Of a stretch of DNA of 64,000 nt, positions 11,262 through 64,000 are shown piece after piece. The stretch covers positions 434,001-498,000 of the forward strand of contig QPGO01000006.1 of NCBI GenBank assembly GCA_008632985.1, given 5' to 3'. The DNA is from Psammoneis japonica (taxonomy: Eukaryota). Each line of letters opens with the position of its first letter. The stretch's first letter is position 1. A program made the position numbers and the translations under genes. Below the pieces are notes generated by a model that was given only the letters and a program-made list of their open reading frames with translations, was not told the DNA's origin and made no database searches.

Positions 11262-12985
11262 GTCGGATTTTCAATCGGGCCGTCGCAGCCAATTTCGGAT
11301 CTTCGACGTAGCCCAATTTCCTCCACCGACACACGCACAATGATGACAGGGTAACTACGAGCATGAAAGAGGGACTCACTGTTGCCTTCCACAGATAAAC
11401 CTCTTTCTCAAGATGACGACATCTGCCAACACCAAATGTCACGATGCTCCCTGACGATGATCCAATGGCATCTGTCATTAATCAGGGGAGGGATCAAGAT
11501 CAAGGGAAGGTTGAGGAAATGGTTGAGCCACAATTGGAACCATTTGAATTGGATCACACCAGGCAAGAAGCAAGCAGCACCATGGAGATGATGGGTGCAA
11601 TGACTGCAGATGGTGATCCAACATGTCTCTCACATTGAGACCCACACAGTCAACAGCACAGTCTTCATTCTTGAGCTGAAGTCCAGAAAAGGCAAACTCC
11701 ACCATCAAACCTTGGTGTGATTGAGCTGCAGTGTGGGTGGAGTCAGGGCAGCCAGGATCTTTGTTTGTTTTCCATGAATGCATGTGGGACAAGCATCCAA
11801 GGGAGAGGTGCCATGAGTGAACATTGGTGCACCATCAACACGTTTGTGATGCAAGTGATGATCACTTGGATGTCCAAGCCATTGGCACCACAGCAGTCAC
11901 TCAGTGTCTGCCTTGAGTGTCTGGACAGGCACCCATTTCTCAATGTCATGAGATTCAAAGGGAACATCATGGTGAACATGAGGAATCAATTTGGGTGCTT
12001 CTTTGAGAACACTTTTGTGGTTTTCCTTGCAAGCATCAATCATGCATGCAATGACAGCATCATGTTCCTTGACAAAAGTTGTGTCATTCACCTTGAGCTC
12101 CAAAATCAATTCATTCAGTGCACACCCAATTCTGGCAGTGTCGGCAGAGGATGGGCAGAGCATTGTCCATTGACCAACTGGCCGTTGACTCAACCACATC
12201 TTTGCTGGGTCCAAAAGGGTGTTTGGCAGTGCCCTTGCAAGTCCTGTTGCTGTGAAATGTCAAAAAACAATCAACTGGTGAGAAGGCACAGAAAATGCAC
12301 TTGTCAACCAAGAAGGCAGGCTGGAGCTGAGGAGGATGACAGTGCGCACAGGTGTGTGGTGACAAGGAGTGCACAAACAACTAAACCCATGGGGAGTGGC
12401 ACCTTCTGCAAGAGCCAGATTGACCTTGAGGGGATGTGGGTTGTTTGGTGCAAATGACTTTGTTGCTGGCATGTGACTCACAGGCACCTGCACCAAGCAG
12501 TGCACAATGTTCATTGGTGCCACACTGTGCAATCGTGCTGATTTTGAAAGCTTTGCATTGAAAGCTTTGCACTGAGCATCAAAGGCAACAGACAGAGAGA
12601 TCCAGGGTGGTGGCACAATGTTTGTTGACATTCAAATGAGTTGAGAGAGTGGCAGCACCAAAGTCATCATGATGATCAGTGCAGTCCAGCTCAAATGGGT
12701 CAAATGGCAGCTCAGCCATTTCCTCAACCCCCCCTGGTCATCAATGGGTGCCATTGGATCATTGTCAGGGAGTGTTGTCATGACAGCAGAGCTCATGTCA
12801 TCTTTTCAAAAAAGTGGTTTGCACTGTGGAAGAAGCCAACAGAGTGGTTCTTGGCCCCCTCTTTCACAGCAGAAGCTGACCCACCACAGTTGCCAGCATG
12901 TGTGTCTCAGCTCAGTGGGGAGAAAATGGGGTGTGCACCAAAGATCATCTGAAGCCAGTTGTGATGGCCCGGTTGAAAAACTGAC
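11262..12985. repeat. Degenerate inverted repeat; arms at about 11262-11560 and 12675-12985 (relic element termini)
   Basis: ctccctgacgatgatccaatggc (11447) matches gccattggatcattgtcagggag (12750) in reverse complement. gtcggattttcaatcgggccgtc (11262) matches gatggcccggttgaaaaactgac (12963). Confidence 0.7.
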
Positions 12986-13298
12986 TGTGAAAAATCTGAT
13001 GCATGCTGTGGTGCAGCCTCTTGCTTCAAGAGCTGGCAGAAATGAGTGTGAAAACCCTTGACACAAGGGCCACTCTTCAGGACAATGGGTCAATCTGCAA
13101 AAAGATGATCACCTGTGCAGACTTAACACAGATGCTTGGTTGCCTCATTTGGCAAACCTTGAGCTCCAAAATGGACACCCCAAGCAAGTTCAGTGCAGGA
13201 AATGGCTGTCATCTTTTGCAGGCATGTCAAGAGCATCAACTTCTTCCTCATGTGGGCTGTCAAAGTGTTGTCTCATGGGGCCAAAGCATTGTCAGAGC

Positions 13299-13532
13299 AG
13301 TCACGACTCAACGTCATTCTGGTCGCATCTCACGACTGCAACCCAGACTCAGATTTTCTCTTCGAAACAATTGGCTCATCACAAAATCGATTCAAACAGA
13401 AGCAACGACATTCGTCATAATTTCCAGACAACGACTTTCAACAAGCGTCTGTTTACCTCTGTCGCCACTCACATTGCCACCAACCTCCGAGGTCTCATCC
13501 ATCCTGCTCAGCTGCAGGACTGTATCTCGACT
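13299..13532 (+). repeat. 5' LTR (AGTC…GACT)
   Basis: Colinear with 20306-20539; 16 transitions and no indels by my manual alignment. Confidence 0.95.
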
Positions 13533-13694
13533 GGTCACAGAGACCAATTTACGCGTTGACGAGAGCTCCTGACCGAGTCATCGTCACGGACGCTTTCGGT
13601 TTTTGATTTTGAAGCAAACCCGGGAAACAGCTGAGTCTCTCTCGCTTCTCTCGTCTTCACTCTAACAAGAACCTCCCACACCACACTCTCTGTC

Positions 13695-16600
13695 ATGGCT
13701 GCCATCGATCCAGATGTTCTGGCGAAGGCGTTTGCCGATGCAATGGCCGCTCACGCCGCGGCGACCGCTCCTCCGGCTCCAACCAAGCCGTCACGTGGTG
13801 GAATTCACCCAACCCACGGGGTTTACATTGGTGGTTCCAAACTCAACAACAACTGCGAACAATCCAACGATAGAACCTGCCGACTCGCCTCTCAGCGCCG
13901 TCATCCCAAGGCTCTCGACTCGATGGAACGATCTCTCCGCGATCAACAAGCTTCCGCAATGACTTCCAAGTTCAACGGTCGACTTGAGATTTCGGACGGT
14001 CCCATCAACGAGCTTGACAAGGACCATTTCGTCAAGACTGTTCGAGATCTAGTAGAAGCCCACGGTCAGCAGACGTTCTACCATGTCAAGGACAGCGACG
14101 ACAAGGTTCAACATGTCTTCGACCATCTTCACGAGTTTGCTGTGACCGATCTCGTGAACGAGCACACGGTTGGGAAAGCAGCTGCCGATGATGCCAAGTA
14201 CGACGAGATCGAGCTCGACGATGTCGGGCTCTCTCAACTTCTCGTTCACTCAAGAATCACCAATGCCTTTCGCGAGAAAATCGAGACCAAGTTCAACCAT
14301 CTTTCGGACTGCCAAGACTGCCCTGGATCTGTTCCATTCATGATGGCTCTCGACACTTGCAATGCTGGCGCTCTAACGGATGTAGAGACGGCTAAGAAGC
14401 AGCTAGAAGACCTCAGTTTGGTCAACTGTCCCGGCGAGGATTGCACGGACTTTGCTGCCGAAGCTCTTCGCATCGTGAAAATTGTGCAGACCGACTGCGC
14501 GCTTCCGGCTAACACAAGCTCCAAGCTGCTCCACAAGATCTCCTCTGCGTCCTCTGAATGCTTCAATCGCCGAGTCTACAACAAGCTCGACGACGTCAAG
14601 GCTATGGAACGCAAGTGCCGTCTCAAGAATCCTGCTGACATCGTGTCCGACAGCGATTGCAAAACGCTCGGACCGGTCGGCATCATTGCGTGGATTCAAG
14701 AGCAACACAACGAACTCGTGAAGGACGGGGAATGGCCTGCATTGGTCGCCAAGCTACCCGAGAGTAATCTTTCGACTGCGGACAACCCTGGGAAGACGAA
14801 GCACTGTTGTGGTTGCGGTCTCGAGGGGTGCACCAAGAAGACGTGTCCAAAGTGCAACGCCAAACCGCCGCGCGACGATCCTCCTCCCAATCCGCCGCCT
14901 GCAGACGACCCTTCCAAGAAGAAGAGGCGACCCATCGCTGCCTGGCGTGCTAAATTTGACGGAGAAACGAAGAAGGATAAGAATGGCAAGGAATGGAAGT
15001 GGTGTGCCACGTGCAAGGCGAAGGGTGCCGACAAACCTGGAATCCACCAGAAGCACTCTACCGCGGAACACACCGACGACCGCAGGCAACCTCCCAAGGA
15101 GACCCCAGCCGGGAATTTGTCTTCCGTTGCTGACCCGGATAGTGGCGTGCCCATGGGTCCGCCCGCTCAGACCACCAAGGCACCAGAGGGAGACGAATCC
15201 GACCCCAACGAGTTAGTTTTCACGAGAATGTGGTGCGCGGCTACGGATCCCGTTGCCGACCCGGATTTCTGTTCCGCCCCTGTCACTGCTGCAATTGTTG
15301 TTACTCCGGCTTCTTCGGCCGAGAGGGAGAGCGATGCAGTCGTCAGCACTGAGGTGGTTTGCATCGAAACGAGCCCACCTGTACTCACCTCAGTCGTGGA
15401 TCCAGTCGTGTCTCCCATCGTGGTTGAGACTGTCACTCCCGAAGACGCCGATGACTTCTACGAATGCTCCGACGCTTTCTCTACCTTTGAAAACGAACCA
15501 CCGGCTATTGAGTTGTTTCCGGCCTCGAAGCTGTACTCTGTCAAGCATCCAGATGAGTTCTTTGACGCTCCCGCACATTTGACAGATGTGCTGTCAGACG
15601 ACACCAAGTTAGATCTCATCCTTGAACACGACATACACTTTGAAGACGCACACTGCGACTTACCTCCGTGTGTTACGTATCGTGGCTTCGATTTCTACGA
15701 TCCAGAGGTCCTGGATACGGATGATTGTCACGAGGACGTCGAAGACGAGCCCACTTCACGTCGCTCACTCTTGGGTCGAGTCAAGCCATTCACATTCTGG
15801 CTCGCCGCCATGTTTTGGGAAACGGTGCTACATCTTTGCTTTGCTCCGATCCCATGTGTCCCTCGAGCTCTACGCCGCCAGCGCAAACTCCCAACTTTGC
15901 ACGGGTTTCCAGCCTCCTGGATGGTCCCATCCGTTGCAGTGATGGCATGGTCAGCAGTTTACGCCGGTCAACAGCCCGAGCATCCATTCTCGAACGTACC
16001 AAGTCGTTTTTCGACCGCTGGCTCTCAAGTCTACCACATTGTGGAAGCGCTAGATGACCGGATAGTGTTAGATTCGGGGTCACTGTTCGAACATCACAGG
16101 ATCAAAGGCACGCAAGTACTCACCGAGTTTGTCGCGCGCCATCCGTCACACGCACTGAGCACTCGTCTCAAGGCCTGCTGGGAGAGCCTAGAAGTAGCTG
16201 AACGGTCTGATGCGATAGACGAATCAGCCTTCTTTGATGCCCATGAGGAACTGGAACCTCTCGACGACCAGAAGTATTTCTTTGACGCTCTTGAGGACTT
16301 CAGCCCGGATTTCTTCCAGTTTGACGAGCTCTGTCTGCCGCATCACATCGTGGACACTACCCATTTTCAAGATCCTGTGGAACCATTGGAGGAAGCAAGT
16401 GTTAGACCAGTCGTCTATGACACCTCCACCATCCAACCACTCACCGGACAATCACAAGCCGACCTCCTTGCATCCGATCCGCAGGCACTCATCGGTCTGT
16501 CGGACGAGGCTCTCACGGTCATCATGGATGCTGGTGCCACGTTAGCTGTTGCCCCCGACAAAGATGATTTTACGGGGCCTGTGACTGTTCCCAAGAAACC

Positions 16601-19600
16601 CTTACAGATCAATGGGATTGCCAACGGCCTTGCCATCCAGGGTGCCGGTCCGGTTGCGTGGGTGTTCACAACGCCGGGTGGGGCTACCATCCAACTGAGC
16701 ACCATGGCATGCTACGTCCCTGGAGCCCGTCAGCGCCTGCTGTCGCCTCAACGCCTCTTCAACGAAGAGAAGGGGGTGCGTGGGAAGTGTGAGGGCGATG
16801 AAACCACTTTCCGTTTACATGTTGACGGGACAGGCAAGTTGGTCGTGCCATGTCATCCATCAAGCCACTCACCTGTTGCGTCGATGACCAAGGGCGTATC
16901 TGCCGCTCCTCAAGTGAACCTTCAGATCCTTAACGAGGAGAATCAAAACCTCACGGCAGGCCAAAAGCTTCTTCTCGAAATGCACGCCCGTTTTGGCCAT
17001 TTGAACTTTGGTCGCGTCCAAGCACTTCTCCGTGCAGTTCCGTTCCTTTCGAACCGTTTCAAGTCCGCAGCGAAGTGTGACCACCCAAGATGCGAGGCAT
17101 GCGAACATGCTAAAGGTCACAGACGCTCTCTTGGATCTACTCACAAGTCGACAGTCCCTGAACGCGACGGGGCCCTTCGAGCTGACCATCTTCGACCGGG
17201 TCAGGCTGTCAGCGTTGATCATTTTGAGTCGCGCCTTCCAGGCCGCACCTTCGACTCTTGTGGCAAAGCCACGTCCAAGCAATTCAAGGGCGGTTGCATC
17301 TTTGTCGACCACGCCTCTGGCTATGTCCAGGTCGAGCACCAACCAGGTTTCTCCGCTGTTGAGACGATGCGCGCGAAGCAAGCGTTTGAGAAACATGCTT
17401 TGGACCACGGGGTCATCGTCCAAGAATTTCTTGCCGACAGTGGCGCTTTCAAGGCCAACGCTTTTGTACAACATGTGCGAGATCATGAACAACGTCTCCG
17501 TTTTTGTGGAACCAACGCCCATCATCAGAACGGCGTCGCAGAGCGGGGTGTCCGCAGCATCTCCAACATGGCGAGAGCGATGTTGCTTCATGCTTCAATG
17601 CACTGGAAGGGGGGAATTGACAGCTCCCTGTGGCCCATGGCAGTTTCTTGTGCCACGTGTGTCTACAATGTCACCCCAAATTCCAAAGGACATTGCCCTG
17701 CGGACATTTTCACCGGTTCGACAGTGCCAAGACATCGGTTGCGCGACATTCACACATGGGGATGTCCAGCGTACGTACTTGACCCGACCCTCGCTTCCGG
17801 GAAGAAGCTCCCGCGTTGGGAGCCTCGCACTCGTCGCGCTTTGTTCGTGGGACTCAGTGCCATCCATTCCAGTGAGGTTCCTTTGGTCCTCAATCTTCAA
17901 ACTGGAAGTGTTGCACCTCAGCATCATGTGGTCTTTGACGATCTCTTCACTGCCGCACCATCAATCGAGAGGGAGACGGATCCACCTGATCACTGGGAAC
18001 ACTCATGCCTCAACCAATCGACATGCATCCCTCTGGAGAAGGATCAGGCAGTTCATTTACACGATGAGTGGCTTGCCCCTCCAGAGCGTCAACGTAAAGA
18101 ACGAGAACTAGCCAGAGCAACACGTGTTCGCGGGCATTTTGAGCCTGCTCCATCGATTGCTGTGCCGGATTCACCCATTTCTTGCGACGACGTTGCCGAT
18201 CGAGTCGCACCTGCGACTCAGCAGCCAACGCCACCAGTCCCACCTGCGACTCAAACTCCTGCAGACTCTGGACTCTACGCCAATTCAGCCACCTGAACCT
18301 CAAGACAGTGACGGACTTCCGCCACCCGAAGCGCCGACGGAACCAACAGCTCCTCCCCCAGTCGAGACACCTCCCATGATGAATCCAGAGGGAGTGCCAG
18401 GGCTGCGACGGTCTTCACGGTCAACCAAGGGACAGTTCAACTCTGCCAAGTTTGTAGATGAGGTCCACTTCAGCTCCGTCGAGGAAACACCGCTGCCGAT
18501 CGGACACGAGGCTCAACTGGCGCATCTGGCGACTCTCGAGACGGATTTGGACAGTGGCACCAACAATGTCGGCGATCCACGAGCCTGCGCAGCTAGCAAG
18601 AAAACCAAGGACCCTGATGTGCCTTCGTTGCACAATGCTCTGAAAGGTCCGGACGCCGACGAATGGATTGGGGCGATGAAAATTGAAGTCAACGCACTCA
18701 CACATCGTCGAGCCTGGAAAGCAGTCGAGCGTCAGCCGCGTGTGAATGTACTTCCAGGCACATGGGCACTAAAGCTCAAGAGACTCCCAGATGGAACCCC
18801 TCTCAAGCACAAGGCCCGATGCTGCGTCCGCGGTGATTTGCAGAAAGAAGGAGTCGACTGCTTCGAAACCTGCACGCCGGTTGTGCAATGGTCCAGCATC
18901 CGACTCATGCTCACTGCGGCATTAAAGGAGGGATGGACTGCACGACAGGTGGACCACACCACAGCCTTTTGCCAAGCTGATGTCGCCGAGGAAGTTTGTG
19001 CAACACCGCCAAAGGGATTTGCGCCAAGGTCGGGACTCAATGTGGTTCTCAAACTTTTGAAAGGACCACACGGCCTAAAACAGTCTCCCAAGGGCTTCTG
19101 CGAGAAGTTACGAGCTGGTTTAACCGAGCGCGGATGGGTGCCTTCAACCATAGATCCCTGTTTGTATTTCAAAGAGGGCATGATGTGTGTGGTGCACGTC
19201 GACGACACCGTTTTTGCTGGAGCTTCAGCTGAAGCTCTAGAAGCCGAAATTCGCAAGTTAGGAGTCTCCGACGACGAACATCGCCACGCATTTGAACTTA
19301 GAGACGAAGGAGAAGTCGGCAACTTTCTCGGTGTCAAGATCGAAAAGCTCTCCGAGGGTCGATTTCTACTCACTCAACCCGGTCTAATTGACAAGGTCCT
19401 GCGTGCCGCACAGATGGAGGATTGCAATGGAGCATCCACTCCAGCTCTACCTGCGGCTGTTGGTGCCGACACGGACGGCCTGCCTTTTGATGAACCCTGC
19501 GATTGTCGCTCAGTTGTTGGAATGTTGATGCACTTGGCAGCGAACAGCCGGCCAGACATTGCACATGCCACACATCAAGTGGCTCGATTCTCGTTTGCGC

Positions 19601-20284
19601 CCCGAGCGTCCCACGCTGCTGCAGTGAAGCGGACACTCCGATGCCTCAAAGCAACTGCCACTGAAGGTCTCATTCTCAAGCCTGCGCAAGATCATCGAGT
19701 TGATTGTTGTGTCGATTCTGACTTCGCGGGGTCATTTGGTGTGGAAGATGGTCAAGACCCAGTTTCTGTCAAGTCCAGGACTGGATGCCTTGTCCACTGC
19801 GCCGGCTGCCCGCTCATCTGGGTGTCCAAGCTGCAGACTCTTGTGGCATTGTCGACCATGGAAGCGGAACATGTCGCACTTTCTCAAGCTGTGCGCGATC
19901 TCATCCCTGTTCGTGAAGTTCTCAAGGAGCTCAACCACCACGCATTCGGAAAGTCTGACCGCCAAAACCCTGTCACGACTCACTCCAAGGCTTTTGAGCT
20001 CGCAACCCAAGGCACCGATGACTCGCCTGTAGAGCAGAATGTCCTGCCTGCGTCCGTTGTGTACGAAGATAACTCCGCGTGCCTCAAGTTCGCACGCATG
20101 CCCAAGTTGTCTCCGCGAACCAAACACATCGGCATCCCGCACCACTGGTTTAGGACTAAAGTCAAAACAATTGGAGATCGACATCCAACCTGTCAGCACT
20201 CTAGAGCAACTGGCCGATCAGTTCACGAAGGGACTACGGACCGATGCGTTCCGCACGGCTAGAAAGGCTCTTGTGGGCTGGCAA
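13695..20284 (+). pseudogene. Copia gag-pol; catalytic and conserved residues mutated; frameshifts near 18270 and 20170
   Basis: Zn knuckle CCGCGLEGCTKKTC; protease MDAGAT; integrase VSVDH…ADSGAF…QNGVAER; RT ARCCVRG, HGLKQS, HVDD; RNase H DSDFAG, EAEH, EDN. Confidence 0.9.
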
Positions 20285-20305
20285 GCTCTCTCGGTTGAGA
20301 GGGAG

Positions 20306-20539
20306 AGTCACGACTCAACGTCATTCTGGTCGCATCTCACAACTGCAACCCAGACTCAGATTTTCTCTTCGAAATAATTAGCTCATCACAAAATCGATTC
20401 AAACAGAAGCAACGACATTCGTCATGATTTCCAGACAACGACTTTCAACAAGCGTCTGTTTGCCTCTGTCGCTGTTCACATTGCTGCCAACCTCCGAGGT
20501 CTCACCCATCCCACTCAGCTGTGGGACTGTGTCTCGACT
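20306..20539 (+). repeat. 3' LTR
   Basis: Direct repeat of 13299-13532, preceded by the polypurine tract. Confidence 0.95.
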
Positions 20540-22502
20540 AGAGTTGGGTCTGGAGGATCACCATCAAGAGTGGGCAGTTCTTCCTCTGTTGACACGCCAT
20601 CAGGAACATGACATCAGCTGTCATTGTGATGTTCTTGTTGGCAACAAGGGCTCCCCATTCAATTGAACAACAGCACATCTGTGCACCAGAAATCAGGCTG
20701 TCAGCCTGGCTGCTGAGGAACATGCTGCTGAGCATCCCCCCACAACTTGCTTCATGGCATGCTTGGATTCATGGGCAGGAGAAACACACTCATTCTTTGC
20801 AGCAATCATTGAGAACTTTGAGTGCATTGCATTCTTGACAAAGACAGTTGTCTCTGGGTTGTCATTCAACACAGTGCATGCAACAGCATCAAAAATGAAA
20901 GCTTGGAGTTGCAAAAAATCCTTTTTGAACAGAGCAAAGCAGTCTGTGATTGACAAATTTCCTTGCTTTGAGTGAGAGGAGTCCACCAAACCCAGTGCTT
21001 CCTTGCAGAATGCCAGATGTGTGCATGGAAAAAATCTGCTTTTGCGCATCTGGCTGTTGCCATGGCAAGAAGCAACAAAGAGCAATGGAGCCTGCTGGTG
21101 TTTTTAAAGAGCATCATGTCATCTTGAGTGGATGTGCATGATGTCATTTCCAATGGTGAGACCCCAATCTCCACCATGGTTGTGTGGAAAGAACCGCTGC
21201 TCACAATGGACAAATGCAGCACTCACAATCAGTGGTTTGCCACTGAAAATTGAGGTGCCACCAGCAGCCAGTTGTGTGGCAAATTGTCATCACACAAGCT
21301 TGGTGTTATGAAGGAAGAAGGCTTTGTAATCTGGTGTTAGATTGACAGTCAAGATGAGGCAGTTGGTGGCATCCAAATGGTGCAGACAGCTGCTGGCATG
21401 AGCGACCATTGGGGCATCACTTTGTTGAGACCCGTGCTGGTTGCAAGTGTCTGACAGCAGTGCATCTGGGCTGAACAGGTGCTTGGATGACAAAGACACA
21501 ACAGGTGCCTTGTCACTCAAAATGCCAGCTGCTGGGTGCATTTTTGATGCATCACAGTTGTTGCTCAGCACATCAATTGAACTGGAGCTGTTGACAGAGC
21601 CTGGCTCAGCAGGTGCCAGTGCCGCTGTGGTCTTGGGGGCATGCTTGGGTGGGAAAGGTGAGTTCAATTGGGGTGCTGCACATCCAGGGCAAAAAACAGA
21701 TGTGTGCTGTGTCAACCACAGTGCAGCTGCTTTGTGGTGCAAGCTTTGACAATGGCAGTTTGGATCTTGCAGCCCCATCCAACATCTTTCATGAGAGATG
21801 AGGCAGAATGTCATCACCCATTTTGCTGTCATTGCCTTGAAGGCAGTGGTGCAACAGATGATGCACATTGGCAGGGTTGCTTGTTTCTGGCAGGACAAGT
21901 TTGTTGAGGATGTGCGCCTTCAACATGTCAACAACACATGACCCTTGGAGATTGTGTGCATGTGTTTGGCATCATCCTCAAAAAACAGATCTGGCTTGAT
22001 GACAATGCCTCTGTAGATTCCACTGAGGCATTCAACAGTTTCAGGGTGATGCAAATGTGGTTGGATCTCTGGGGTGATGCCCTTGAGAGTGTCAACAATG
22101 CCCCTTTTTTGGCAAGCCTTGAGTCACATGATTGGTTGTGAGCAAAACAGTCACAGAGATTCAGCACTGTCCTCACAGCCCAAAAAACATCCGGGGTTTG
22201 CAGCAGCACAGAAGAGTGTGTGCAACACATCACAAGGCCACACCAAAAGAACCTGTCCCACAAAGTGCAGCAGTGGGTGGACAAGATGACAAACACTCAG
22301 GGGCTTCTTGCAAACCAGCAAAAGTGGCATCATGTGCACTGACAAGAAAGAGTGAGAGACAGATCTTAGAGAGATTTGCTTGGCCACCTGAAAGGATGCC
22401 TGGCCACCATCACCCACAAACAGAGTTTTGCATGTGTGCACATGGCCTGTTCCAGCTCCAGGCATCCAAAAAAGGGGCATGATCCATCGCTGGGGCATGT
22501 TT

Positions 22503-22650
22503 TTGCATTTGGCACAATGAACTCTTTCAACTTCGATTGTGAGTGCACACAAAACTTTTGTTTTTTTTTGTGAGCATTTGTTTTTGTGTGTGCTCACCTT
22601 TTGATTTTTGAAATGATCAAAATTGATGGAATTCATTGTGCCAAATGCAA
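22503..22650. mobile_element. Small MITE-like inverted-repeat element (about 150 bp)
   Basis: ttgcatttggcacaatgaa (22503) and ttcattgtgccaaatgcaa (ending 22650) are perfect reverse complements; the match extends imperfectly to about 38 bp. Confidence 0.55.
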
Positions 22651-23742
22651 CCCTCAGCTGGCATCTTGCATGATGGATCACGGATCACCTGGAGCTGTGG
22701 AACAGGCCACATCCGGTCAGCTGACAGCTGTGCATGCACCCACAGCTGAGATTTTGAAATGGGAGGACCAGATGCATGCAGCATGCATTCACACTGAACA
22801 ACTTGCATGGACAAAGCTGTCATCTCTGCTGTTCTGCCATCAGATCAAGAATGGAATGTGCCGGCACACTGCAAAGAACACCGCTGATGACAGGTGTCTT
22901 TTCGGGGTGTGCTTCTCAGAGCAAACAAAGGTCATTTAACACAACAAAGGAGAACCCCCCACCTCCATCTCACTCAGCACTTCCTTTTAATTGATCCGTC
23001 ACTGCACACATGAAAACATCACTCTGTGCTGCTGCCGACAAAGAACACAGCCAAAACAAGGTTTGCCAGACACAGAGGGCAGGGGGGCTGCTCCCAGCCA
23101 ACCTTCTCTTCTCTCTTCTCCAGCCAGTGGCCAGCCCCACTGACAGGGACAGCTAGCCACAGATGGAATGCAGCAACAAAGCAAAACACAGAATTTGTGT
23201 TTAAAATGCTGCCTGCTGCTGCCACACTTCTGCCCTTCCAACTCCGAGAGGGCGTGGCAATGGGCTGCATGCGCCATGCTACACTAAACTAACTGCGGCA
23301 GGCAGGCAGACACACTTTCGGCGCGACGGCTTTTGCAACGGTCTAAATAAACAACTTTAATCCCTAAGATATTTTGAAATCATGTATACCATTATTAAGG
23401 TGTAAATACATTAATGAATAACTTAAGTCTTGGATATCTTTTTTAGTATGGCCGAGATCCCACATAGATTCGTTTGCGATAGCGGAACCTCTATCATAGG
23501 AATATCCTCATTTTGATATACTATTTTATGTTCATTTCTTTGTTTACACGAGTTGCGAGCGATGTGGCAAATCGCAAACACTCACGAAATACAAATCGTT
23601 TGTGATGACCATATCATCGTGTGTTTGTTTGTTTTTACTTTCGTACCACGCATTTTGCTGTCGGAGTCGACTATCCAATATCCGTTCCTTCTTTATTTTG
23701 ACGAGAGTAGCTGAATTCTAAAGGGATAGAATCTGAAGGACA

Positions 23743-50230: not shown

Positions 50231-50689
50231 TTAAAAATGAGGTTGGGTTTTGTGTGCACGAGGTGAGCCACACATGTGCAAGGGACACACGCATGTGAGT
50301 GGGGAGAACAAAGTGGGGACCAAGCTCAAAATGCATTTGATTGGAGTTTGCATCAGAAAAGCTGTTGAGACATCAGATGAAATGCACAAAACATGTGCAT
50401 TTTGTTTGGTGCTGTTGCCGACATTTTTCAAATTCAACTTGTCAACAATTTGGACAGTGCACATTAAAAAAATGTGCAATGGAAAGTGGAGACCACTGCA
50501 TTGCACCCTCTCACATTGCGGTGTTTTGTTTGAACAAGTGCAAGCTTGTCCAGTTGCCTTTGTTGCTTGCCGCAAGGTGGCAGCATTGGCAGCACAATCT
50601 GCAAACTTGCCGGCACTGTTCACATCTGGTCTTGAAACAGTTGCCTTCAATGGAGCCATTGGCTCATTGAGGTTGGTGGTTGGAGCAGT

Positions 50690-51350
50690 GAGTGAGGCAG
50701 CATGGGGCAGCCGGTGGTGCAAGAGCAGCCACTTGGCACAGGGAGTTGGCAGCAATGGAGCAGACACACAGCCTGGGAGTTGGCAGTGTTGGAGCAGCCA
50801 GGTGGGTGGGAGTTGGCAGTGTTGGTGCAGCAAGCCAGGTGGCGCGGCAGTTGGCGGTGCTGCAGTGGCCAGTTGGCACAGGGAATGGGTGGTGTTGGAG
50901 CAGCCATGTGGTGGTGTGGGAGCTTGCAGTGTTGGAGCATGGCCAGGCAGCATGGGAATTGGTTGTGTTGGAGCAGCCATGCAGCGCAAGAGTTGGCAGC
51001 ATTGGAGTGTGGCTGGGTGGCATGGGATGAGTCGGCAGCACTGGAGCAGCTGGTTGGCACAAAGAGTTGGCGGCATTTGAGCAGCTGTGCAGCATGGGAG
51101 CATGTTGCATTTGAGCAGCAAGGCGGTGTGGGTCAGCTGTGATGGAGTGGTGGGAGCAGCAAGGTGGCATGGGAGTCAGTCAGTGGCACTGGAGCAGCCA
51201 TTTGGCACAGGGAGTGGGAGGCATTTGAGCAGGTGTGTGGCGTGGGAACCGGCAGCATTCTTTGAGTGGGTGGGTGGCATGGGAGCAGCTGGCAGGCAGT
51301 GTGGGAGTCGGTGGTGGAGGTGTTGAAGTGGGCAGCATTGGAGCGGCACA
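50690..51350. repeat. Degenerate G-rich tandem repeat (ttggagcagcc / gggagttggcag units)
   Basis: The motifs recur many times at spacings of about 30-120 bp. Confidence 0.7.
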
Positions 51351-52011
51351 TGCTGCATCAGCAGTGATGACTGTCCTCTGCTCCAACTGTGTTGAATGGC
51401 AATGGACGACTGCCTTGCTCAAACATTGCCGTTTGATGACGTTGCGATTCATTCACAATGTCAAAATCGTGTGAGCACATGGTTGGAGGCGAAAAGCCTC
51501 TGAGCCAACAACAACAAAGAGCCGACAAAAGATCAAGGCATTGCACACAGCTCCAGTTTGCTTGCGAGAGGATGCCATCAAGTCAGTTGTGACCTCTGCC
51601 AGCTGGAGCAGAGGATTCACTCTTAACTCTCAGCCCTGTAATTTGTTCTCTAAAATGTCCCAACTTTACTCATGTGCCAATCAGTTGCCACTGCGACATT
51701 CCTTTGGGTTGGCTTTTCCCTTCGCTCGCTAAAACACTGCCTTTTCTGTGAAATGGCAGAAGGCATCACTCCTTGATGCAACCAACGTTTTCTAAATGAA
51801 CACTCCAGTGAAACATGCATTTGTCATTTGTGTCCATCACATGTAAATCACATGCACCCTCCTCTTTGCTTGCTTGAAGATTCATGTAGAACCAGCTGTC
51901 CCCAACAGCCATGACAGTCCTTGTGAGGCAATCCGTCATCCAAGTTGATGCTGGCTACATGTTTTTGAGTGGCAAGGTCGTGGATCTGAACTGTGTGGCT
52001 CTTCATTGTTG

Positions 52012-54093
52012 TCAGTTGCCCCTTGTGAACCAAACTCCTTGCAGGGATGCGTGCGTTGTACCAGCAGCATGTCGCCAGCTGATGATGCGGCTAGGTTCAA
52101 CATGCGACATGTTGAAAAGAGGCTCGATGCCATCGACGTCAATGCGGTGCAAGCCAAAGCCGTCACAGTTGTGCCGATGTCCACAGAGGTAGATTTGAAG
52201 AGGGACAACAAGAACCTTTGACCTCCGTAGGTGGCGAAAGGCAAGATGGTTCCTCTGTGCATCACTGTGCGAATGAGGAGCATCCACTTTGTGTCGCTGC
52301 ACCAAACTCGGAGCAGTCAGATCAGAAACGTTGAACAAACTCACGAGAAAACCAGTGGTTCGACCGGTGTCTTCGTTCGCGTCCTGTCCGATTCCGATGA
52401 GCATGTTGTCGTCGACGGGGTGCAGACAGTTGGAGAAGCCCATCATCTTCAACTCGCCCTTGACTTCAGGGTTGGCAGGATCTTTCAAATCTGCTGCACA
52501 CAGTGGATCAACCTGCCAAAAAGTCACGACAAATGCCTTGTCGTCCAAGAATCGGACGGCATGCATCCATTCTCCCTTGCCAAGACCCTCCACAAACCCA
52601 ATGCGTTTGCCAAAGTTTTTTGAATCTCCTGATGGCTTGTTGAAGTCAAGAATGGATGTCTGACTTGAAGAGTCACTGATGGTCATCCACCTGCAGGGGA
52701 GAGTTGTTTCGGCACAAGTGGCTGGTGGGAGACAGCTCCATTGAGCACGGTTTGTCGCAGCCACTCGTAGATGCCCGTCATGGAAATCCATGGAGAGCTG
52801 ATTCAGAACACATCTGGCAACCTCCGCACCGCCCACTCCCTTGGCAGCACTTCCATCATCTTGCAATTCAAATGCATGCAGGTGAGTGCGTTCTTTCCAG
52901 TTGCGCCAGTCATTGAACCACTGCCGCCAGCCTCGTCCAGCCACGACGAGAACATCTTGTGATGCGCACACATCCACCGAGCTCGTCGGGAGAAAAGCAT
53001 TCATTGACGAAAGAGTGATTCTGTTGTCATCAAAGTCTTCATCTATGTCGAAGCTTGTGACTTTGGTCAGAGTTGTCAGCATGTCAACGTTGTGGTAAAA
53101 GCCGGGTGCCTTGTCCTCGGCAGTGCTGCCAGTCATCAAGGACAACATCTTCGCAAAGTTGCGGCAGTTTCCGCCGAAACCCAGCTCTTCTTCAAGTCGT
53201 TTGATGACGGTGGGGATGAGGGCAGTCGCTTTTGCCTTTGCAGCTCTTCGGCACATCTCTGCGTCCATTCCTTGATGATCTTCTGCACATCTTTGAAGAT
53301 GCTGAGAGCAATGCTGAAACCAGTTGAAATTGGACATTGTGGCAATGTGTCCAACAGCGGAGATGGACCGGGAGGCAATGCATCGCCCTTGCAAGTCTTG
53401 GTGTGCAAGCAACTTCATCTCTGGAACACCGGTCTTGTCAACAATGCTTGGTTTCGTTTCAGACATGTCACAAACACGCAGCTGCAGCTTCTCTCGTCCT
53501 GCTGGAATCCTTGGGTTTGTGGAACCGCAGCGGCAACAGCTCTGGTGCCAACCGACAACCACTGCCAATCGATTTTCGTGAAGAAGTGGCGCCTTGATCC
53601 GAGGCTTGGAAGTGCGTGGCAGGTGGACGACCCTCAGCTCACGCCCAGCAGGGATGGTGGTCATGGCAGTGCGAGTCAGCACCTTTCCTGTTTTGGCATC
53701 CCATTGACATGGGATGTCACCATGCACTGCACAAACAACTTCACTGTTGGACTTGACAATGTCTCCCTCATCCACACCCGCTTCTTGGTTGTTCGTTTCA
53801 AAACTGTCCTCTGGTTCTGCATTGCTTTTTGCAGTGGATTCCACTGCGGCAGGGGCTGGACCTTGACTTCTGAGATGTGTTTCGGGACAGCAGTTGTCGT
53901 GCTTTCCATCAAAGATTGTGAAGTTCGCAAGCGATTTCAAAGCATCTGTGACATCCATTCTTAGAGCATTGCAGCTCTCGCATCCCTTGGCGTCTGATGC
54001 ACTGAACGGTCGACGCTCTACGATGAACGGATCGGATCCTGATTCATCAACGCCTCCTGATTCCCAACGTTTGCATCGAACTTGTTTTGGCAT
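52012..54093 (-). pseudogene. Beta-propeller domain protein (Beta_propel family-like), hypermutated but with an open frame
   Basis: Motifs TNNQEAGVDEGDIVKS, LNQLSMDFHDGHLRVA, VVTFWQVDPL, GELKMMGFSNCLHP and LIGIGQ. Only 2 Tyr in 693 aa. Confidence 0.75.
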
Positions 54094-54212
54094 CTGTTTT
54101 CACAGTTGCTTCTCTTTTCACCACTCGGTTTGTTCTTGGCACACCAGGTGAAGCACCTCTCAATCTTCTTTTCCCTTCCTGCTGCCAAGTTCCTCTTCGC
54201 CAAAGGTTGAAG

Positions 54213-58872: not shown

Positions 58873-59266
58873 GGCGGGTCATCCCCCACTTTTTTTAGCT
58901 CGAATTTGGCCGAATAGCTCGTGATTTGCATGATTTTTCTTGAATTTCACCGTGCTTCACCGTGGTGAAAACATCAAGCCATAAGTCTGTGACGGAGGTG
59001 GGCCGTGCGTCAACTTTCATTTATTTTGTGCTTGTTGTGTATCTGGGGTCACACATGCATCAAATGTTTGCGCACGGACCACTGCGTTTTGGACTCATGT
59101 CGATGTTGCCGTCATCGTCGTGCTTCGATCACGGTGCCTGATGTTCTCGTTTTCGTGCGTGATCGGGGGTGAATGTAAATAATTTTTGCATTCAAAAATA
59201 AACACTGTGAGTGTCCTTGTTCAAATGCCACGATAATTTCCAGGACAAACGCGGGGATGACCCGCC
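58873..59266. mobile_element. 394-bp MITE with perfect 14-bp TIRs and TTAA (or TA) target duplication
   Basis: ttaa-ggcgggtcatcccc…ggggatgacccgcc-ttaa. The empty site gctgctttaacaagag is present in the second unit at about 62351-62366. Confidence 0.92.
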
Positions 59267-59410
59267 TTAACAAGAGAGAAGGAAGGAAGAGAGCAAACGG
59301 AAGCAGCAAGGAAAGAAGTGAGACGACCGTGCGATGTGTTGTTGCGTTTTTGCGGAGTTGAAGATAGAGCGCATGAGCCTGACGCGCACAAAAGATTTCC
59401 ACGGCAGATT

Positions 59411-62173
59411 TTACATGTGCGCTGTCGCCCCCCATTTCCCGTCTTCTATCTTGGTCCCAATTTGAGATGGAACGTTGGCTAGAATCACAGTGCAAATGAT
59501 GAATCTACATTTACAGGCTAACTTGGACGAACAATGTTCATCATGCGGTGCTCTTCCTCGAGCAGCCACCCCCAACAAGTTTGTTTTTGAAAGATGAAAA
59601 TCCCTGGCTCGGAAGCAACAGAATTTTTTGGTCAGATCCGATTGCAGATTCGGCACCAGATGCAACGGCGGCAAACATGTTGGCAAACTGGTCCAAAATG
59701 GAGCAATGGCAATCGGCACACAGCATGGCACAGGGCATGGTGCAACAGGGATGGGTGGTGCACGTCTCGGCGCTGCCTTGTCTTGAGAACACGAGGACTT
59801 GGTTTTTTTCGCGCTCGGCCCCTCAGCACACGTCGGCGTCGGCTGTTGTGACTCGCGGTTCCTTTTGCATGGGTTCACCACAGTTGATGCAGGATTAGAT
59901 CGAGTTGCATGTGGGTTTCTTGTCCCACACTTGCTGCACATGCATCTGTCAGGGTCGTTGTTGCTGCTCGCAGCTGCTGCGCCAAATTTTGCTTTTCTCG
60001 CTTCGAGTTCCTCGTCCACGCTTTCTGGTTGTTTCGGGCATGCTGAAAAATGCCGCTCACCATTGTCTGCTTTCAATTCTTCGACATTTTCATGCACAGG
60101 ATGACCGACTCCCACTTTCTCCGCCAACTTGTTGTTGCAGTCGAGCCTGCTGTGGTTGAGAAACGTCGGCACCCCACGAAAGGCGTGCGGAATCTTGGCG
60201 CACTCGTCCGCCGTCATCTCGTCCATTCGAAGACGCTGGCGTGTCGCAATGTTGCATTCACATGTTCCAGCAAGGCACAGTGCATCTATGAAGGTGCTCC
60301 TGGAACCGGTGTTTCCAAAATGCTTGACGATGTGATGAAACTTCTCAAGCTTGGATTTGGTGCCGGTGGTGGTGACGTGCGTGTCAAGCTTGCACTTCGA
60401 CCATTTTGAAGGCTTGACGACTCTGTGCAAGTCTCCACGTTGTAAAGGCTCATCGAGTCCACGAGCTGTCACCTTTGCATTTTCCACCGCTGGCTCAGTG
60501 TCTTCCGTGAAGAGAGGCCTGCCAGAATCTGGATCATGCCGTCCGCCGGCGTCTGCCGCTCCAGGAGACGCAGAGCACTTGCACCGATTAAACCACGCTT
60601 CAAGATTGCTGTTGCATGTTGCAAGAGGGTAAGTCCACCTTCGTGTGTGCTTCTGGCAGTTTTTCCATTTCTTGCTCTTCTTGATCTCTTGAATTTCTTC
60701 GCTTGCATGTGTCTTGCCGCCGAGCCTTCCAAACATTGGCGCATCGATCACCCGCGCCTCGTTGGATTCATCATTGCACCAAACGCAATCTTTCAAGTCA
60801 CGAACGGCACGACAGCAATCAATGTGCGTGCCTTGCAAGGTGCGAATGATTTGGTTAGTCCAGTGCCAAAGACCAAGCCGACACACTGTGTCCTGACCAA
60901 AAATTTCTTTCCAAAACTCTTCCTTGTTCGGCCATGCATCAGAACAGTGAACTTGGGGGTTCACATTTGGACGTCTGGCGAATTGCTCAGCAGCATGGGC
61001 AAAATCCTTGGTTTCCAGTGATGGCACCACTGCCGCCACCCCAATTTCCCCCGTCTCAACAGCCATGGTGAAAAGTCCTTTTCCGTCATTGTCTTTGTAA
61101 TTTTTCAATTGGTCGAAGGTGTGGTCGGAAGCAATGCTCACACAACAACCGACTGATTGGATCTCTCTTGTGTGTCGCATGTTGTCGCTTGTGCCAGTGT
61201 TGGCATGTTTCGAATCGGCAACTGCATCAAACATGTCGCGCACATTCTGACCTGTTGGTCCATGTCGACCCAACCACTTCTCAAAAGTTGACAACACTGG
61301 TGTGGGCGTCATGGAACTTTTCGCCGCTTCGATCCACCTCAAATGACATCGCTCCTCCACATCAAGGTAAGCTTGGCCATGTTGTTGATGCAGGCACGCC
61401 GACATGGCATCACCGTTGCTGCTTTCCTTCAATTCGTGCTCAGTGATGGTGGCAGCAGCAGCACCGGTGGCAGCAGTGACGGGCGTGGTGTCGGCAGCAT
61501 CATTCAACGAGTCGGTCGTTGCAGATGGCTCACTGTTCTTTGAAGCCCTGGTGTGAATGCGGAACAGGTCCTCCATGCCTTCCTCAGTTAGACGCTGAAA
61601 ACCCTGTGCTTTTTTTGCGTTCTTTCTTGCGTCACTAGTCACAAAGCGGTGGACAGCCGCGTTTCGCTCGGTGCTCATGTTCTTTCCATAACACATGGAT
61701 TTTGGGCAGCTGGGATCATGGCCCTTTTTGCAGGTGGGTCCTTGTTTGCATCTCTTGCACTCAACAACCTTTTCTTGAGTGGCGCGACTGTTTGACAGAG
61801 TCAGAATTTGCGATTCTGCCTCCGCCGCCGGTGATGTTGTAAACCGAGGCGCATTTTTTCCCGACAACTTTGCGATTCCAGAAAAAGCTCGCTCCTTTGC
61901 TTTTTTCGTGGCTGCCTTTCGAGTCTGAGACTGAACACCCATGGTGCTGGGAAGCTTGCGGGAGTGATGCTTCTCCATTCTGCTGCAATTCCTTCTCTCA
62001 GAACTCTCTTGCACAGGTGGGTCGGCACTGATGATGAGTGAGATGAAAAAAGACCGGAGGAGTTTGAATTTTGTGTGTGGTGGCTTTGTCCGAGCGCCAG
62101 TGCTCAGACTGTGGCGCGTCCGTCTGAGATGGACGAACCGAGGTGGCAGTGTCTGTGTTGCATTGATCGTCAA
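59411..62173 (-). pseudogene. Element-encoded protein, possibly transposase-like; Tyr-depleted
   Basis: 920-aa ORF with SDHTFD, HCSDAWP, RLGLWHW, LEKFHH and Cys/His clusters; 4 Tyr in total. The family is not confidently assigned. Confidence 0.5.
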
Positions 62174-62286
62174 CTGATGATGATGCGCATTCTTTCAGAA
62201 AGCCCAAGCATTGCAACGTGTGTTCTTGAAATGAAGCGTTCTGATTGGTCCAATCTTCCATCGGTGGGGGGCCTGTCACGACTCCA

Positions 62287-64000
62287 AAAATGGGGGGGGT
62301 GCAGACGGAAGAAGAGGGGGGGAGAGGGGGAGCGAAGCGACCCCGTTGTTGCTGCTTTAACAAGAGAGAAGGAAGGAAGAGAGCAAACGGAAGCAGCAAG
62401 GAAAGAAGTGAGACGACCGTGCAATGTGTTGTTGCGTTTTTGCGGAGTTGAAGATAGAGCGCATGAGCCTGATGCGCACAAAAGATTTCTGTGGTAGATT
62501 TCACACATGCGCTGTCGCCCCCCATTTCCCATCTTCTATCTTGGTCCCAATTTGAGATGGAACGTTGGCTAGAATCACAGTGCAAATGATGAATCTACAT
62601 TTGCAGGCTGCTTGGATGAACAATGTTCATCATGCGGCACTCTTCCTCAAGCAGCCACCCCCAACAAGTTTGTTTTTGAAAGATGAAAATCCCTGGCTCG
62701 GAAGCAACAGAATTTTTTGGTCAGATCCGATTGCAGATTCGGCGCCAGATGCAACGGCAGCAAATGTGTTGGCAAACTAGTCCAAAATGGAGCAACAGCA
62801 ATTGGCACACAGCATGGCACAGGGCATGGTGCAACAGGGATGGGTGGTGCGCGTCTCGGCGCTGCCTTGTCTTGAGAACACGAGGACTTGGTTTTTTTCG
62901 CGCTCGGCCCCTCAGCACACGTCGGCGTCGGCTGTTGTGACTCGCAGTTCCTTTTGCATGGGTTCACCACAGTTGAAGCAGGATTAGATCGAGTTGCACA
63001 TGGGTTTCTTGTCCCACACTTGCTGCACATGCATCTGTCAGGGTCGTTGTTGCTGCTCGCAGCTGCTGCGCCAAATTTTGCTTTTCTCGCTTCGAGTTCC
63101 TCGCCCGCGCTTTCCAGTTGTTTCGGGCATGCTGAAAAATGCCGCTCACCATTGTCTGCTTTCAATTCTTCGACATTTTCATGCACAGGATGACCGACTC
63201 CCGCTTTCTCCGCCAACTTGTTGTTGTGGTCGAGCCTGCTGTGGTTGAGAAACGTCGGCACCCCACGAAAGGCGTGCGGAATCTTGGCGCGCTCGTCCGC
63301 CGTCATCTCGTCCATTCGAAGACGCTGGCGTGTCGCAATGTTGCATTCACACGTTCCAGCAAGGCACAGTGCATCTATGAAGGTGCTCCTGGAACCGGTG
63401 TTTCCAAAATGCTTGACGATGTGATGAAACTTCTCAAGCTTGGATTCGGTGCCGGTGGTGGTGACGTGCGTGTCAAGCTTGCACTTCGACCATTTTGAAG
63501 GCTTGATGACTCTGTGCAAGTCTCCACGTTGCAAAGGCTCATCGAGTCCACGAGCTGTCACCTTTGCATTTTCCACCGCTGGCTTGGCATCTTCCGTGAA
63601 GAGAGGCCTGCCAGAATCTGGATCATGCCGTCCGCCGGCGTCTGCCGCTCCAGGAGATGCAGAGCACTTGTGCCGATCAAACCACACTTCAAGATTGCTG
63701 TTGCGTGTTGCGAGAGGGTGAGTCCACCTTCGCACACACTTCTGGCAGTTTTTCCATTTCTTGCTCTTCTTGATCTCTTGAATTTCTTTGCTTGCACGTG
63801 TCTTGCCGCAGAGCCTTCCAAACATTAGCGCATTGATCACCCGCGCCTCGTTGGATTCATCATTGTGCCGAATGCAATCTTTCAAGTCACGAACGGCACG
63901 ACAGCAATCAATGTGCGTGCCTCGCAAGGTGCGAATGATTTGGTTAGTCCAGTGCCAAAGACCAAGCCGACACACTGTGTCCTGACCAAAAATTTCTTTC
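62287..64000 (-). mobile_element. Unit 2 of the tandem element (truncated by the window end)
   Basis: Near-identical to unit 1; the differences are overwhelmingly transitions at TA/TG/CA/CG dinucleotides. Confidence 0.85.

Follow-up and report, generated by a model that had tools for sequence, protein, structure and literature searches.

What removes one dinucleotide, TpA, from some blocks of a chromosome while the genes between them keep theirs? The question is raised by a 64,000-nucleotide (nt) stretch of the diatom Psammoneis japonica (GenBank assembly GCA_008632985.1, contig QPGO01000006.1, positions 434,001 to 498,000 of the forward strand), which we call the window and number from its first letter. 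A preliminary description, made from the letters alone, had proposed a domain-restricted mutator that turns TpA into TpG or CpA, a reversal of fungal repeat-induced point mutation (RIP). Our analysis shows that the affected blocks were mutated where the DNA now sits, specifically at TpA and on both strands, with neighbouring genes spared. The likely explanation is a defence against mobile DNA that resembles the TpA hypermutation of the chlorarachniophyte alga Bigelowiella natans.

TpA is missing from sharply bounded blocks

Block-restricted TpA depletion is real and lies far beyond chance. We computed observed/expected (o/e) dinucleotide ratios in 1-kb bins taken every 500 bases (n = 127 in the 64-kb window). 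TpA o/e falls to 0.00–0.15 at 11.5–13.3, 20.5–22.5, 32.3–36.3, 43.5–51, 52–53.5 and 59.5–64 kb, and is intermediate (0.14–0.46) in the body of a Copia-type long terminal repeat (LTR) retrotransposon at 13.3–20.5 kb. Genes at 2.6–11.4, 23.3–32.2, 36.5–43.4 and 54.3–59.2 kb mostly have TpA o/e of 0.42–0.80, with 0.32–0.40 in four bins. These ratios bear out the four TA-poor, TG/CA-rich domains, with normal genes between them, that had been noticed earlier. TG and CA o/e reach 1.5–2.9 in the depleted blocks, whose G+C content is 0.45–0.57. Block edges are sharp, within 100 bases or less: the last TA ahead of blocks stands at 11479 and 43486, and TA is back at 23280 and 54228.

CpG is lost too, and in the window this is seen only where TpA is already depleted. 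TpA o/e is below 0.15 in 41 of the 127 bins; CpG o/e is below 0.4 in 27 of those 41 and at least 0.7 in 11. Not one bin with TpA o/e of at least 0.4 has CpG o/e below 0.7, and the gene stretches between blocks have CpG o/e of 0.74–1.29. The cores at 11.5–13.3, 20.5–22.5, 33.5–36 and 43.5–51 kb are also nearly CpG-free (o/e 0.03–0.3). The Copia element, an open reading frame (ORF) with a beta-propeller domain and the block at 59.3–64 kb retain CpG despite their TpA loss.

Depletion leaves its mark on the predicted proteins. Block ORFs contain 0–0.5% Tyr (1.1% in the exception, Copia ORF1) and 7–16% Cys plus His; ORFs outside contain 0.9–5.8% Tyr. TAA and TAG together drop from 15.9 to 2.5 per kb per strand in blocks, TGA is unchanged at 19–25, and stop-free runs of at least 100 amino acids (aa) rise from 2.6 to 3.9 per kb. 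The additional open frames are a mechanical consequence of TpA loss, which removes TAA and TAG; the proposal that this accounts for the dense spurious ORFs fits these counts.

TA is the ancestral state

Judged from aligned sequences, TA is shown to be ancestral and TpA to TpG or CpA to be the direction of change in the blocks. We defined conserved Tyr columns as those with Tyr in at least 60% of aligned homologues. The 18 such columns of the beta-propeller ORF now hold 0 Tyr, 8 Cys and 7 His; the 21 of the Copia reverse transcriptase (RT) ORF hold 1 Tyr, 8 His and 8 Cys; and the 18 of a 927-aa ORF at the right end of the window hold 2 Tyr, 5 Cys and 4 His. Pooled, 57 conserved Tyr columns have become 3 Tyr, 21 Cys and 19 His in ORFs whose homologues contain 2.5–5.9% Tyr. 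Phe, Trp, His and Cys columns are mostly retained in the Copia RT and beta-propeller ORFs; retention is lower in the 927-aa ORF (Phe 8/15 columns, Trp 3/5). The earlier observation that Tyr turns into both Cys and His within single ORFs, and hence on both strands, holds across these three ORFs. Other codon positions agree: 6 of 9 Ile>Val replacements have T just before, and the further common replacements (Ile>Met, Ile>Thr, Val>Ala, Leu>Pro, Leu>Ser) fit TA at other codon positions.

A 190-nt repeat gives the same direction at the DNA level. One copy lies at 29.8 kb amid normal genes, the other at 35.7 kb inside a depleted block; wherever the first has an aligned TA (10 sites), the second has TG (5) or CA (5). 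All 6 aligned CG of the 29.8-kb copy read CA (4) or TG (2) in its partner. That the blocks had carried TG and CA ancestrally was one of the conditions under which the preliminary description would have failed; the homologues carry Tyr, and this repeat copy keeps TA and CG.

Mutation followed integration

Paired copies within the window show what changed after they became pairs. We compared them before and after collapsing pyrimidine–purine (YpR) steps, each step being rewritten to one symbol before identity was computed. The two LTRs of the Copia element differ in 16 columns, 14 of them in YpR steps; the YpR sites comprise 4 CA versus TG, 5 TA versus TG/CA and 1 CG versus CA, and collapse raises identity from 93.2% to 99.15%. 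Tandem copies at 59264–60911 and 62354–64000 differ in 71 columns, 65 in YpR steps and 6 elsewhere, with 27 CG versus TG/CA, 15 CA versus TG and 8 TA versus TG/CA sites; here identity goes from 95.7% to 99.64%. CpG change, slower than that of TpA, is the only other frequent change within either pair. The TpA specificity first suspected is supported.

The LTRs were identical at integration and have since diverged at YpR steps, so mutation followed integration, which excludes both editing of an RNA intermediate and an ancestral composition. The claim of a DNA-level process thus stands, on 14 of 16 LTR columns and 65 of 71 tandem columns. Editing by APOBEC- or ADAR-type enzymes before integration was rejected: the LTRs diverged after integration, there are no runs, and Cys and His occur within one ORF.

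The tandem pair also permits a rough estimate of rates. Its copies have 84 CG in common against 27 CG versus TG/CA sites; these counts predict about 1 of the 15 CA versus TG sites, so the remainder would be TpA changed on different strands in the two copies. On this reckoning, which presumes that double hits gave same and different products in equal numbers, at least 60% of identifiable TpA, about 14% of CpG and about 0.18% of other bases would have changed per copy. Relative to other positions, the rate of change would then be about 500 times as high at TpA and about 80 times as high at CpG. TpA loss is ahead of CpG loss in the tandem pair, the Copia element and the beta-propeller ORF, and CpG to TpG/CpA change occurs only inside blocks and is complete only in the oldest ones.

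These comparisons bear on the idea that the composition is ancestral or selected, as in foreign or viral DNA that avoids TA and CpG, or that it comes from adenine-to-inosine (A-to-I) editing of RNA before retrotransposition. Many viruses are poor in both TA and CpG, RNA viruses for instance in UpA and CpG, and some of the blocks have no recognisable origin. Against it stand the conversion of conserved Tyr to Cys or His in three unrelated ORFs, changes on both strands within one ORF, LTRs and tandem copies that diverged at TpA sites after integration, and the existence of an unmutated 190-nt copy. A search of IMG/VR contigs, moreover, returned no relative of either the beta-propeller ORF or the 927-aa ORF. 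This account is refuted for the elements that could be tested, and overall we find it barely credible.

Sites change independently and favour T-A-Y

Neighbouring sites mutate independently, and both strands are affected about equally. A runs test of TG against CA gave z between −1.75 and +0.84 across all seven depleted blocks; none of the seven contains strand-coordinated runs, and the 50 YpR sites at which the tandem copies differ have no run structure either. One site gives the only hint of short-range coordination. At about 60644–60650 versus 63733–63739 one tandem copy has TGTGTG and the other CACACA, as though a (TA)3 run had been rewritten in a single event per copy, on opposite strands.

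The flanking bases follow one simple rule. In partly depleted elements, ATAA, ATAC and ATAT survive at 0–0.08 of their density in genes, GTAC at 0.22, ATAG/CTAT at 0.27, CTAC at 0.42, CTAA at 0.70 and CTAG at 0.86. In fully depleted blocks, TTAA or CTAA/TTAG make up 32 of the 50 leftover TA. Polarised events came from Tyr codons, from two metagenome loci described below (L072 and L064), from the 190-nt repeat and from the paired LTRs and tandem copies. At sites whose strands are not equivalent, the change fell 29 times on the strand with A before a pyrimidine and 11 times on the other (binomial p = 0.006). R-T-A-Y sites (R, purine; Y, pyrimidine) are lost first and Y-T-A-R sites last because adenine before a pyrimidine is preferred. 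Survival and strand choice together show the preferred target to be 5'-T-A-Y-3'.

The same counts speak to error-prone repair, which the preliminary description had listed as a candidate. A Pol eta-type polymerase recruited to methylated or heterochromatic DNA, for example by T:G mismatches derived from 5-methylcytosine (5mC), would place G opposite T at WA (W, A or T). Pol eta does produce A>G at WA with TA favoured, and CpG deamination does occur in these blocks. The fit is nevertheless poor, as ApA steps are unaffected and differences outside YpR steps are few (6/71 in the tandem pair, 2/16 in the LTR pair); on this ground we set general WA mutagenesis aside. TpA loss well ahead of CpG loss in three elements makes it independent of CpG damage, and the 50 differing tandem-pair sites show no patch-like clustering. 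We give repair of this kind a slim chance.

Reads carry the same sequence and metagenomes the same kind of footprint

A sequencing run reproduces the depleted sequence almost letter for letter. Three coded runs of sample S1 were compared with 52001–62000; X1 contained 0.77 of the sampled words, X2 0.06 and X3 0.02. A k-mer contig from X1, 11,225 nt long at a word depth of about 60, covers 43001–47455 with 2 other letters and no gap, crossing from normal DNA over the block edge into 4 kb of TA- and CpG-free block. The two differences lie at 43033 and 45964, where the window has TG and the run CG; allelic variation or recent CpG change, within the block and next to it, may account for them. From the table of run contigs (1480 rows in all) we used 24 of 40 listed rows, leaving aside 16 at 55594–55872 (normal DNA, diverged contig).

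Metagenomes contain the same kind of footprint. Of 150 homologues of the 927-aa ORF, several predicted proteins that come from JGI and ENA metagenomes have 0–1% Tyr and 9–12% Cys plus His. The Tyr-poor, Cys/His-rich entries P0353, P0376, P0414, P0413 and P0404 are probably dead hypermutated transposase-like copies with their frames still open. A metagenome scan with an alignment of relatives of the 927-aa ORF gave 78 loci, 10 of which have 1-kb bins with TpA o/e below 0.15, TG/CA of 1.1–2.0 and CpG of 0.17–0.8 beside normal DNA (37 of 1697 bins; two of the ten loci nearly duplicate other members of the set). L065 and L066, contigs of two assemblies, share one depleted kilobase at 100% identity; the set includes SPAdes and JGI contigs of Illumina type. 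Over 2.3 kb, the normal locus L072 and the depleted locus L064 share 74% identity: 57 aligned TA of L072 correspond to 8 TA, 28 TG, 20 CA and 1 CG in L064, and in reverse just 1 CA of L072 is TA in L064. The contigs probably come from another organism, as their encoded proteins are 29–39% identical to the window ORF; their G+C is 45–49%, and the genes beside their blocks are ordinary eukaryotic ones (Pfam: CBF/Mak21, C2, LRR, guanylate cyclase). In these loci 6 of 866 bins have CpG o/e below 0.4 with TpA o/e of at least 0.4 (L041:1–1500, L001:13001–14000), so that CpG loss without TpA loss is possible there, unlike in the window.

A sequencing, basecalling or polishing artefact on modified DNA, the true sequence being TA and CG, had been feared from the outset. 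The near-total depletion and the sharp edges would suit it, and the only run that contains the sequence comes from one sample that may be the source of the assembly. It is countered by the X1 contig, which passes from normal DNA into a block with 2 differences, by the metagenome blocks (including L065 and its identical partner), by the L072/L064 pair and by Tyr-free relatives in public protein sets. The fixed, random interleaving of TG and CA is not misreading either, since modified bases would give all TG on one strand and all CA on the other. In B. natans, finally, a preprint available to us in part describes the process directly in Illumina-sequenced mutation-accumulation lines. We hold an artefact to be very unlikely.

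Identifiable targets are mobile or apparently multi-copy, and some repeats escape

The host is a pennate diatom by one of its own genes. A GH38 mannosidase ORF at 6518–8416 is 57–67% identical to Seminavis and Cylindrotheca proteins and 60–71% to shorter Fragilaria and Pseudo-nitzschia proteins; among the animal and plant proteins listed, identity does not exceed 54%.

Every target that could be identified is mobile or seemingly multi-copy DNA (Table 1). Besides its RVT_2 domain, the Copia element has weak gag_pre-integrs and SH3_retrovirus matches in Pfam. Summed word depth (contigs of at least 80% likeness) is mostly 383–433 over the beta-propeller ORF, with 262 at its 3' end, and 417–593 over 59.7–61.7 kb, against about 60 over neighbouring genes, which suggests several related copies of each. 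The 927-aa ORF belongs to a family of 689 homologues. Its nearest language-model clusters are DUF6729 and then Mutator and KDZ transposases, which we treat as a lead only; Pfam recognised no family in 8 of its homologues. The claim that host-type genes are hit is therefore not established: the beta-propeller ORF stands at 6–7 times the depth of its neighbours, and the 927-aa ORF is, as a lead only, transposase-like. At 43.0–46.3 kb word depth equals that of single-copy genes, and the depleted part there is fully TpA-depleted.

Table 1. Blocks and elements of the window (TpA and CpG values are o/e)
Feature	Position	Strand	Evidence and composition
Left part of an old relic nearly free of TA and CpG, split by the Copia element	11480..13298	.	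2 TA and 6 CG in 11,501–13,250; TpA 0.02–0.14, CpG 0.07–0.24 up to 13 kb
Copia-type LTR retrotransposon, partly TpA-depleted, CpG kept	13299..20539	+	RVT_2 8.6e-33; CpG 0.84–1.12
Copia LTRs	13299–13532 and 20306–20539		
Copia ORFs	13695–18296 and 18124–20262 (RT ORF)		
Right part of the same old relic nearly free of TA and CpG	20540..23250	.	TpA 0.03–0.07, CpG 0.07–0.16 at 20.5–22.5 kb
Short-repeat copy without mutation, amid normal genes	29809..29993	+	Partner at 35728–35914 in a depleted block
TA- and CpG-depleted block, no recognisable element type	32250..36450	.	TpA 0.03–0.16, CpG 0.14–0.47
Largest TA/CpG-free block	43490..51600	.	TpA 0.00–0.07, CpG 0.03–0.31
Retroelement integrase relic within the largest block	49305–49964	+	Integrase_H2C2 1.8e-11
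Diverged tandem array within the largest block	about 50648–51369		Self-matches
Hypermutated, intact-looking beta-propeller domain ORF	52012..54093	-	Beta_propel PF09826 9.4e-73; TpA 0.05–0.09, CpG 0.63–0.74
Tandem duplication, TpA-depleted, CpG kept	59264..64000	-	Copies 59264–60911 and 62354–64000; the second runs off the stretch
Transposase-like ORFs in the tandem duplication	59414–62194 (927 aa) and 62650–63999	-	

Two blocks are of no recognisable origin: the relic at 11.5–13.3 plus 20.5–23.25 kb and the block at 32.25–36.45 kb. Pfam found no family in the ORFs tested from the left part of the relic (5/5) or from the second block (11/11). Across 59 of the 66 stop-to-stop block ORFs of at least 110 aa, plus one shorter frame, Integrase_H2C2 was the only above-threshold match; T3SS_NleG (E 0.0018) and IBR_1 (E 0.0044) fell under their curated cut-offs and were judged chance matches. 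Rfam and tRNA scans of the 64-kb window returned no matches. The array within the largest block is detectable only after YpR collapse (75–77% identity); with CA o/e of 2.4–2.9 and GC skew of 0.2 it is the sole spot with clearly unequal CA and TG.

Other repeats in the window are untouched. A putative miniature inverted-repeat transposable element (MITE) of about 390 nt at 54213–54602, with 25-nt terminal inverted repeats (92% complementary), has an X1 summed word depth of 57,000–96,000 against about 60 for genes. It adjoins the right edge of a depleted block exactly, yet many of its TA and CpG persist; one diverged contig lacks it, running straight from 54177 to 54603. Three tandem arrays fill 4–2434, with periods of 265, 230 and 151 nt and 76–89% matches; they show strong GC skew (0.16–0.18) and AT skew, and normal TpA and CpG. 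Among the genes of normal composition, adjacent same-strand ORFs at 38227–40406 carry AAA_17/HAD domains and a UPRTase domain, and may be one gene of the uridine kinase/uracil phosphoribosyltransferase type split by a short intron or a frame change.

A proposed mechanism by adenine deamination

Transposons, their relics and apparently multi-copy DNA were mutated in place, and we consider it likely that this is the work of a defence like the B. natans process, perhaps acting through adenine deamination. The process turns TpA into TpG or CpA, an A-to-G change beside a 5' T on one strand or the other. Its chemistry may be enzymatic: a deaminase, TadA/ADAT2-like or of another kind, would convert the adenine of silenced DNA to hypoxanthine. 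The T-A-Y preference of the blocks resembles that of bacterial TadA, which acts on U-A-C-G. Mobile DNA would be crippled through the loss of Tyr, including the Tyr of the reverse transcriptase YxDD motif, and through changed Ile, Leu and Val codons and lost TA-rich signals, with neither stop codons nor AT-rich DNA as a by-product. The accompanying CpG loss would reflect deamination of 5mC in methylated transposons.

A slower route to the same footprint would be the decay of a symmetric TpA mark. N6-methyladenine (6mA) or an oxidised thymine (5-hydroxymethyl- or 5-formyluracil) might mispair or deaminate, as 5-methyl-CpG does. Independent sites and equal strands are the very pattern of CpG decay, which is under way within these blocks and absent from the remainder of the window. 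R-T-A-Y, the site class most readily lost, is palindromic, as expected of symmetric recognition of the methyltransferase type, and a palindromic step leaves the damaged base, T or A, indistinguishable by sequence. Against such decay, we know of no TpA-directed DNA modification in diatoms, and the 6mA of bacterial Dam sites is not known to make them strong hotspots of mutation. A literature search on 6mA in diatoms, taken at the level of its record listing, showed no TpA-directed modification. In the part of the B. natans preprint available to us the process is active in just 11 of 15 lines, which is more like a switched enzyme than steady decay. We judge mark decay unlikely, if less so than the other alternatives.

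Several points weigh against a deaminase-based defence of the B. natans kind. The blocks lack the strand-coordinated runs of processive single-strand deaminases such as APOBEC3, and slow decay of a symmetric mark fits that absence equally well. The MITE, the 230–265-nt arrays at 4–2434 and the 190-nt copy at 29.8 kb are all without mutation, so repetition alone is not the trigger. Run X1 shares its sample, S1, with the other runs, may be the assembly's own source and has no recorded library type; the rate estimates lean on the assumption of equal products. The available preprint text reports no CpG effect in B. natans, and the two cases may not be identical. Enzymatic adenine deamination is accordingly the weakest step of the explanation, and we give it about an even chance; the weight beyond deamination and mark decay is spread over repair synthesis, further causes and artefact.

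A bolder version is one that we entertain tentatively and doubt more than we believe. One old, chromatin-targeted defence could be common to diatoms, chlorarachniophytes and mat eukaryotes, built on a double-stranded DNA (dsDNA) adenine deaminase with T-A-Y specificity, possibly a dual A/C enzyme that acts on CpG too.

Implications

Should the diatom and Bigelowiella share one process, it would reach across two branches of the SAR supergroup (Stramenopila, Alveolata and Rhizaria) and into the environmental contigs, and would be a general algal genome defence and not a peculiarity of a single strain. A natural dsDNA adenine deaminase acting beside T would be new biochemistry, directly useful for base editing. 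A widespread eukaryotic "reverse RIP" would moreover be invisible to ordinary RIP and GC-content scans. Some diatoms, members of an ecologically dominant group, can be manipulated genetically, so the enzyme could be sought by knockout if model species show the footprint.

The footprint also matters for annotation. Hypermutated elements keep long, Tyr-free, Cys/His-rich frames and are already deposited as "proteins" in public sets. Their copies evade repeat finders, with identity brought from above 99% down to 93–96% by YpR changes alone. Low TpA with high TpG plus CpA offers a simple genome-wide screen.

Comparison with known systems

Fungal RIP is the mirror image of what we describe. Both are DNA-level, sharp-edged mutation in a dinucleotide context that inactivates mobile or duplicated DNA. 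RIP, however, is C>T at CpA and makes TpA, stops and AT-rich DNA, whereas the diatom blocks have TpA destroyed, TAA and TAG removed and G+C not lowered, the opposite direction. Also unlike RIP, short or high-copy repeats in the window are spared.

Decay of methyl-CpG very probably explains the CpG part of the pattern, to judge from site composition. Like it, the change goes from CpG to TpG/CpA site by site, with equal strands and in transposon blocks only. Such decay cannot remove TpA, and TpA loss precedes CpG loss in every young element. In diatoms transposons are methylated by DNMT5a, and many species carry a RID-like DNMT4 of function not known, according to the part of PMC9998398 available to us.

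Deaminases acting on selfish elements are known from other settings. APOBEC3 and ADAR also mutate such elements, and ADAR prefers a 5' U; they act on single-stranded DNA or RNA before integration and leave strand-coordinated runs, whereas the diatom changes came after integration, on both strands and without runs. TadA, ADAT2-ADAT3 and the A-to-I mRNA editing of the fungal sexual stage have an obligatory 5' U/T in common with the blocks, but their known activity is on RNA. UAG, which fungal mRNA editing prefers, is the context least affected in the diatom blocks. To our knowledge, a DNA adenine deaminase has so far been obtained only by laboratory evolution of TadA. Activity on DNA is noted only for amphioxus and trypanosome ADAT2, as cited in the available text of bioRxiv 10.64898/2026.01.13.699255.

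The closest counterpart is B. natans, as described in that 2026 preprint (Mettrop et al., bioRxiv 10.64898/2026.01.13.699255), on which the following rests as far as its text was accessible. Full-text literature searches returned no description of TpA loss in diatoms; the preprint nonetheless supersedes the earlier claim that the process is undescribed. Of the 302 nuclear mutations in 15 mutation-accumulation lines, 231 lay in an integrated giant-virus region (186 kb) and a virophage region (25 kb), where the rate was about 6e-7 per site and generation, 1000-fold that in the rest of the genome. All but one of the 231 (230) were A>G or T>C, all of these on TpA, and 11 of the 15 lines were affected. 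The authors report 324 TpA-depleted coding sequences enriched in reverse transcriptase and DDE domains and 124 clusters of low-TpA, high-CpA+TpG windows, and propose an ADAT2-like protein as the deaminase, unproven there too. The accessible text does not mention CpG, diatoms or flanking bases.

The two cases differ in several respects. Our host is a pennate diatom (Stramenopila) and theirs a chlorarachniophyte (Rhizaria). Integrated viruses are the targets there; in the diatom they are LTR retrotransposons, a transposase-like gene and a beta-propeller ORF. TpA o/e is 0.45 in their virus region, and here depletion is near saturation (0.00–0.1). The older diatom blocks have lost CpG as well, and the 3' pyrimidine preference and site independence are reported for the diatom only, going by the accessible text. 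Ours is a footprint, theirs are directly measured mutations. The diatom case thus adds to theirs a new host, transposon targets, saturation, a coupled CpG loss, a flanking-base preference, independent neighbouring sites and environmental contigs; to the preliminary description it adds the diatom host, mobile or multi-copy targets, CpG loss in older blocks, site independence and the T-A-Y preference.

What the two algae have in common defines one pattern: TpA goes to TpG/CpA on both strands, confined to blocks of foreign or mobile DNA, with a low-TpA, high-CpA+TpG footprint, with reverse transcriptase (and, there, DDE domains) among the depleted genes, and with adenine deamination proposed as the cause. 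Two hallmarks of the B. natans process recur in the diatom, namely A>G/T>C almost only at TpA (plus the CpG change) and confinement to blocks of mobile or foreign DNA beside normal genes, two of the diatom blocks being of no recognisable origin. By this comparison, the diatom blocks are very probably the footprint of the same kind of process as the TpA hypermutation of B. natans.

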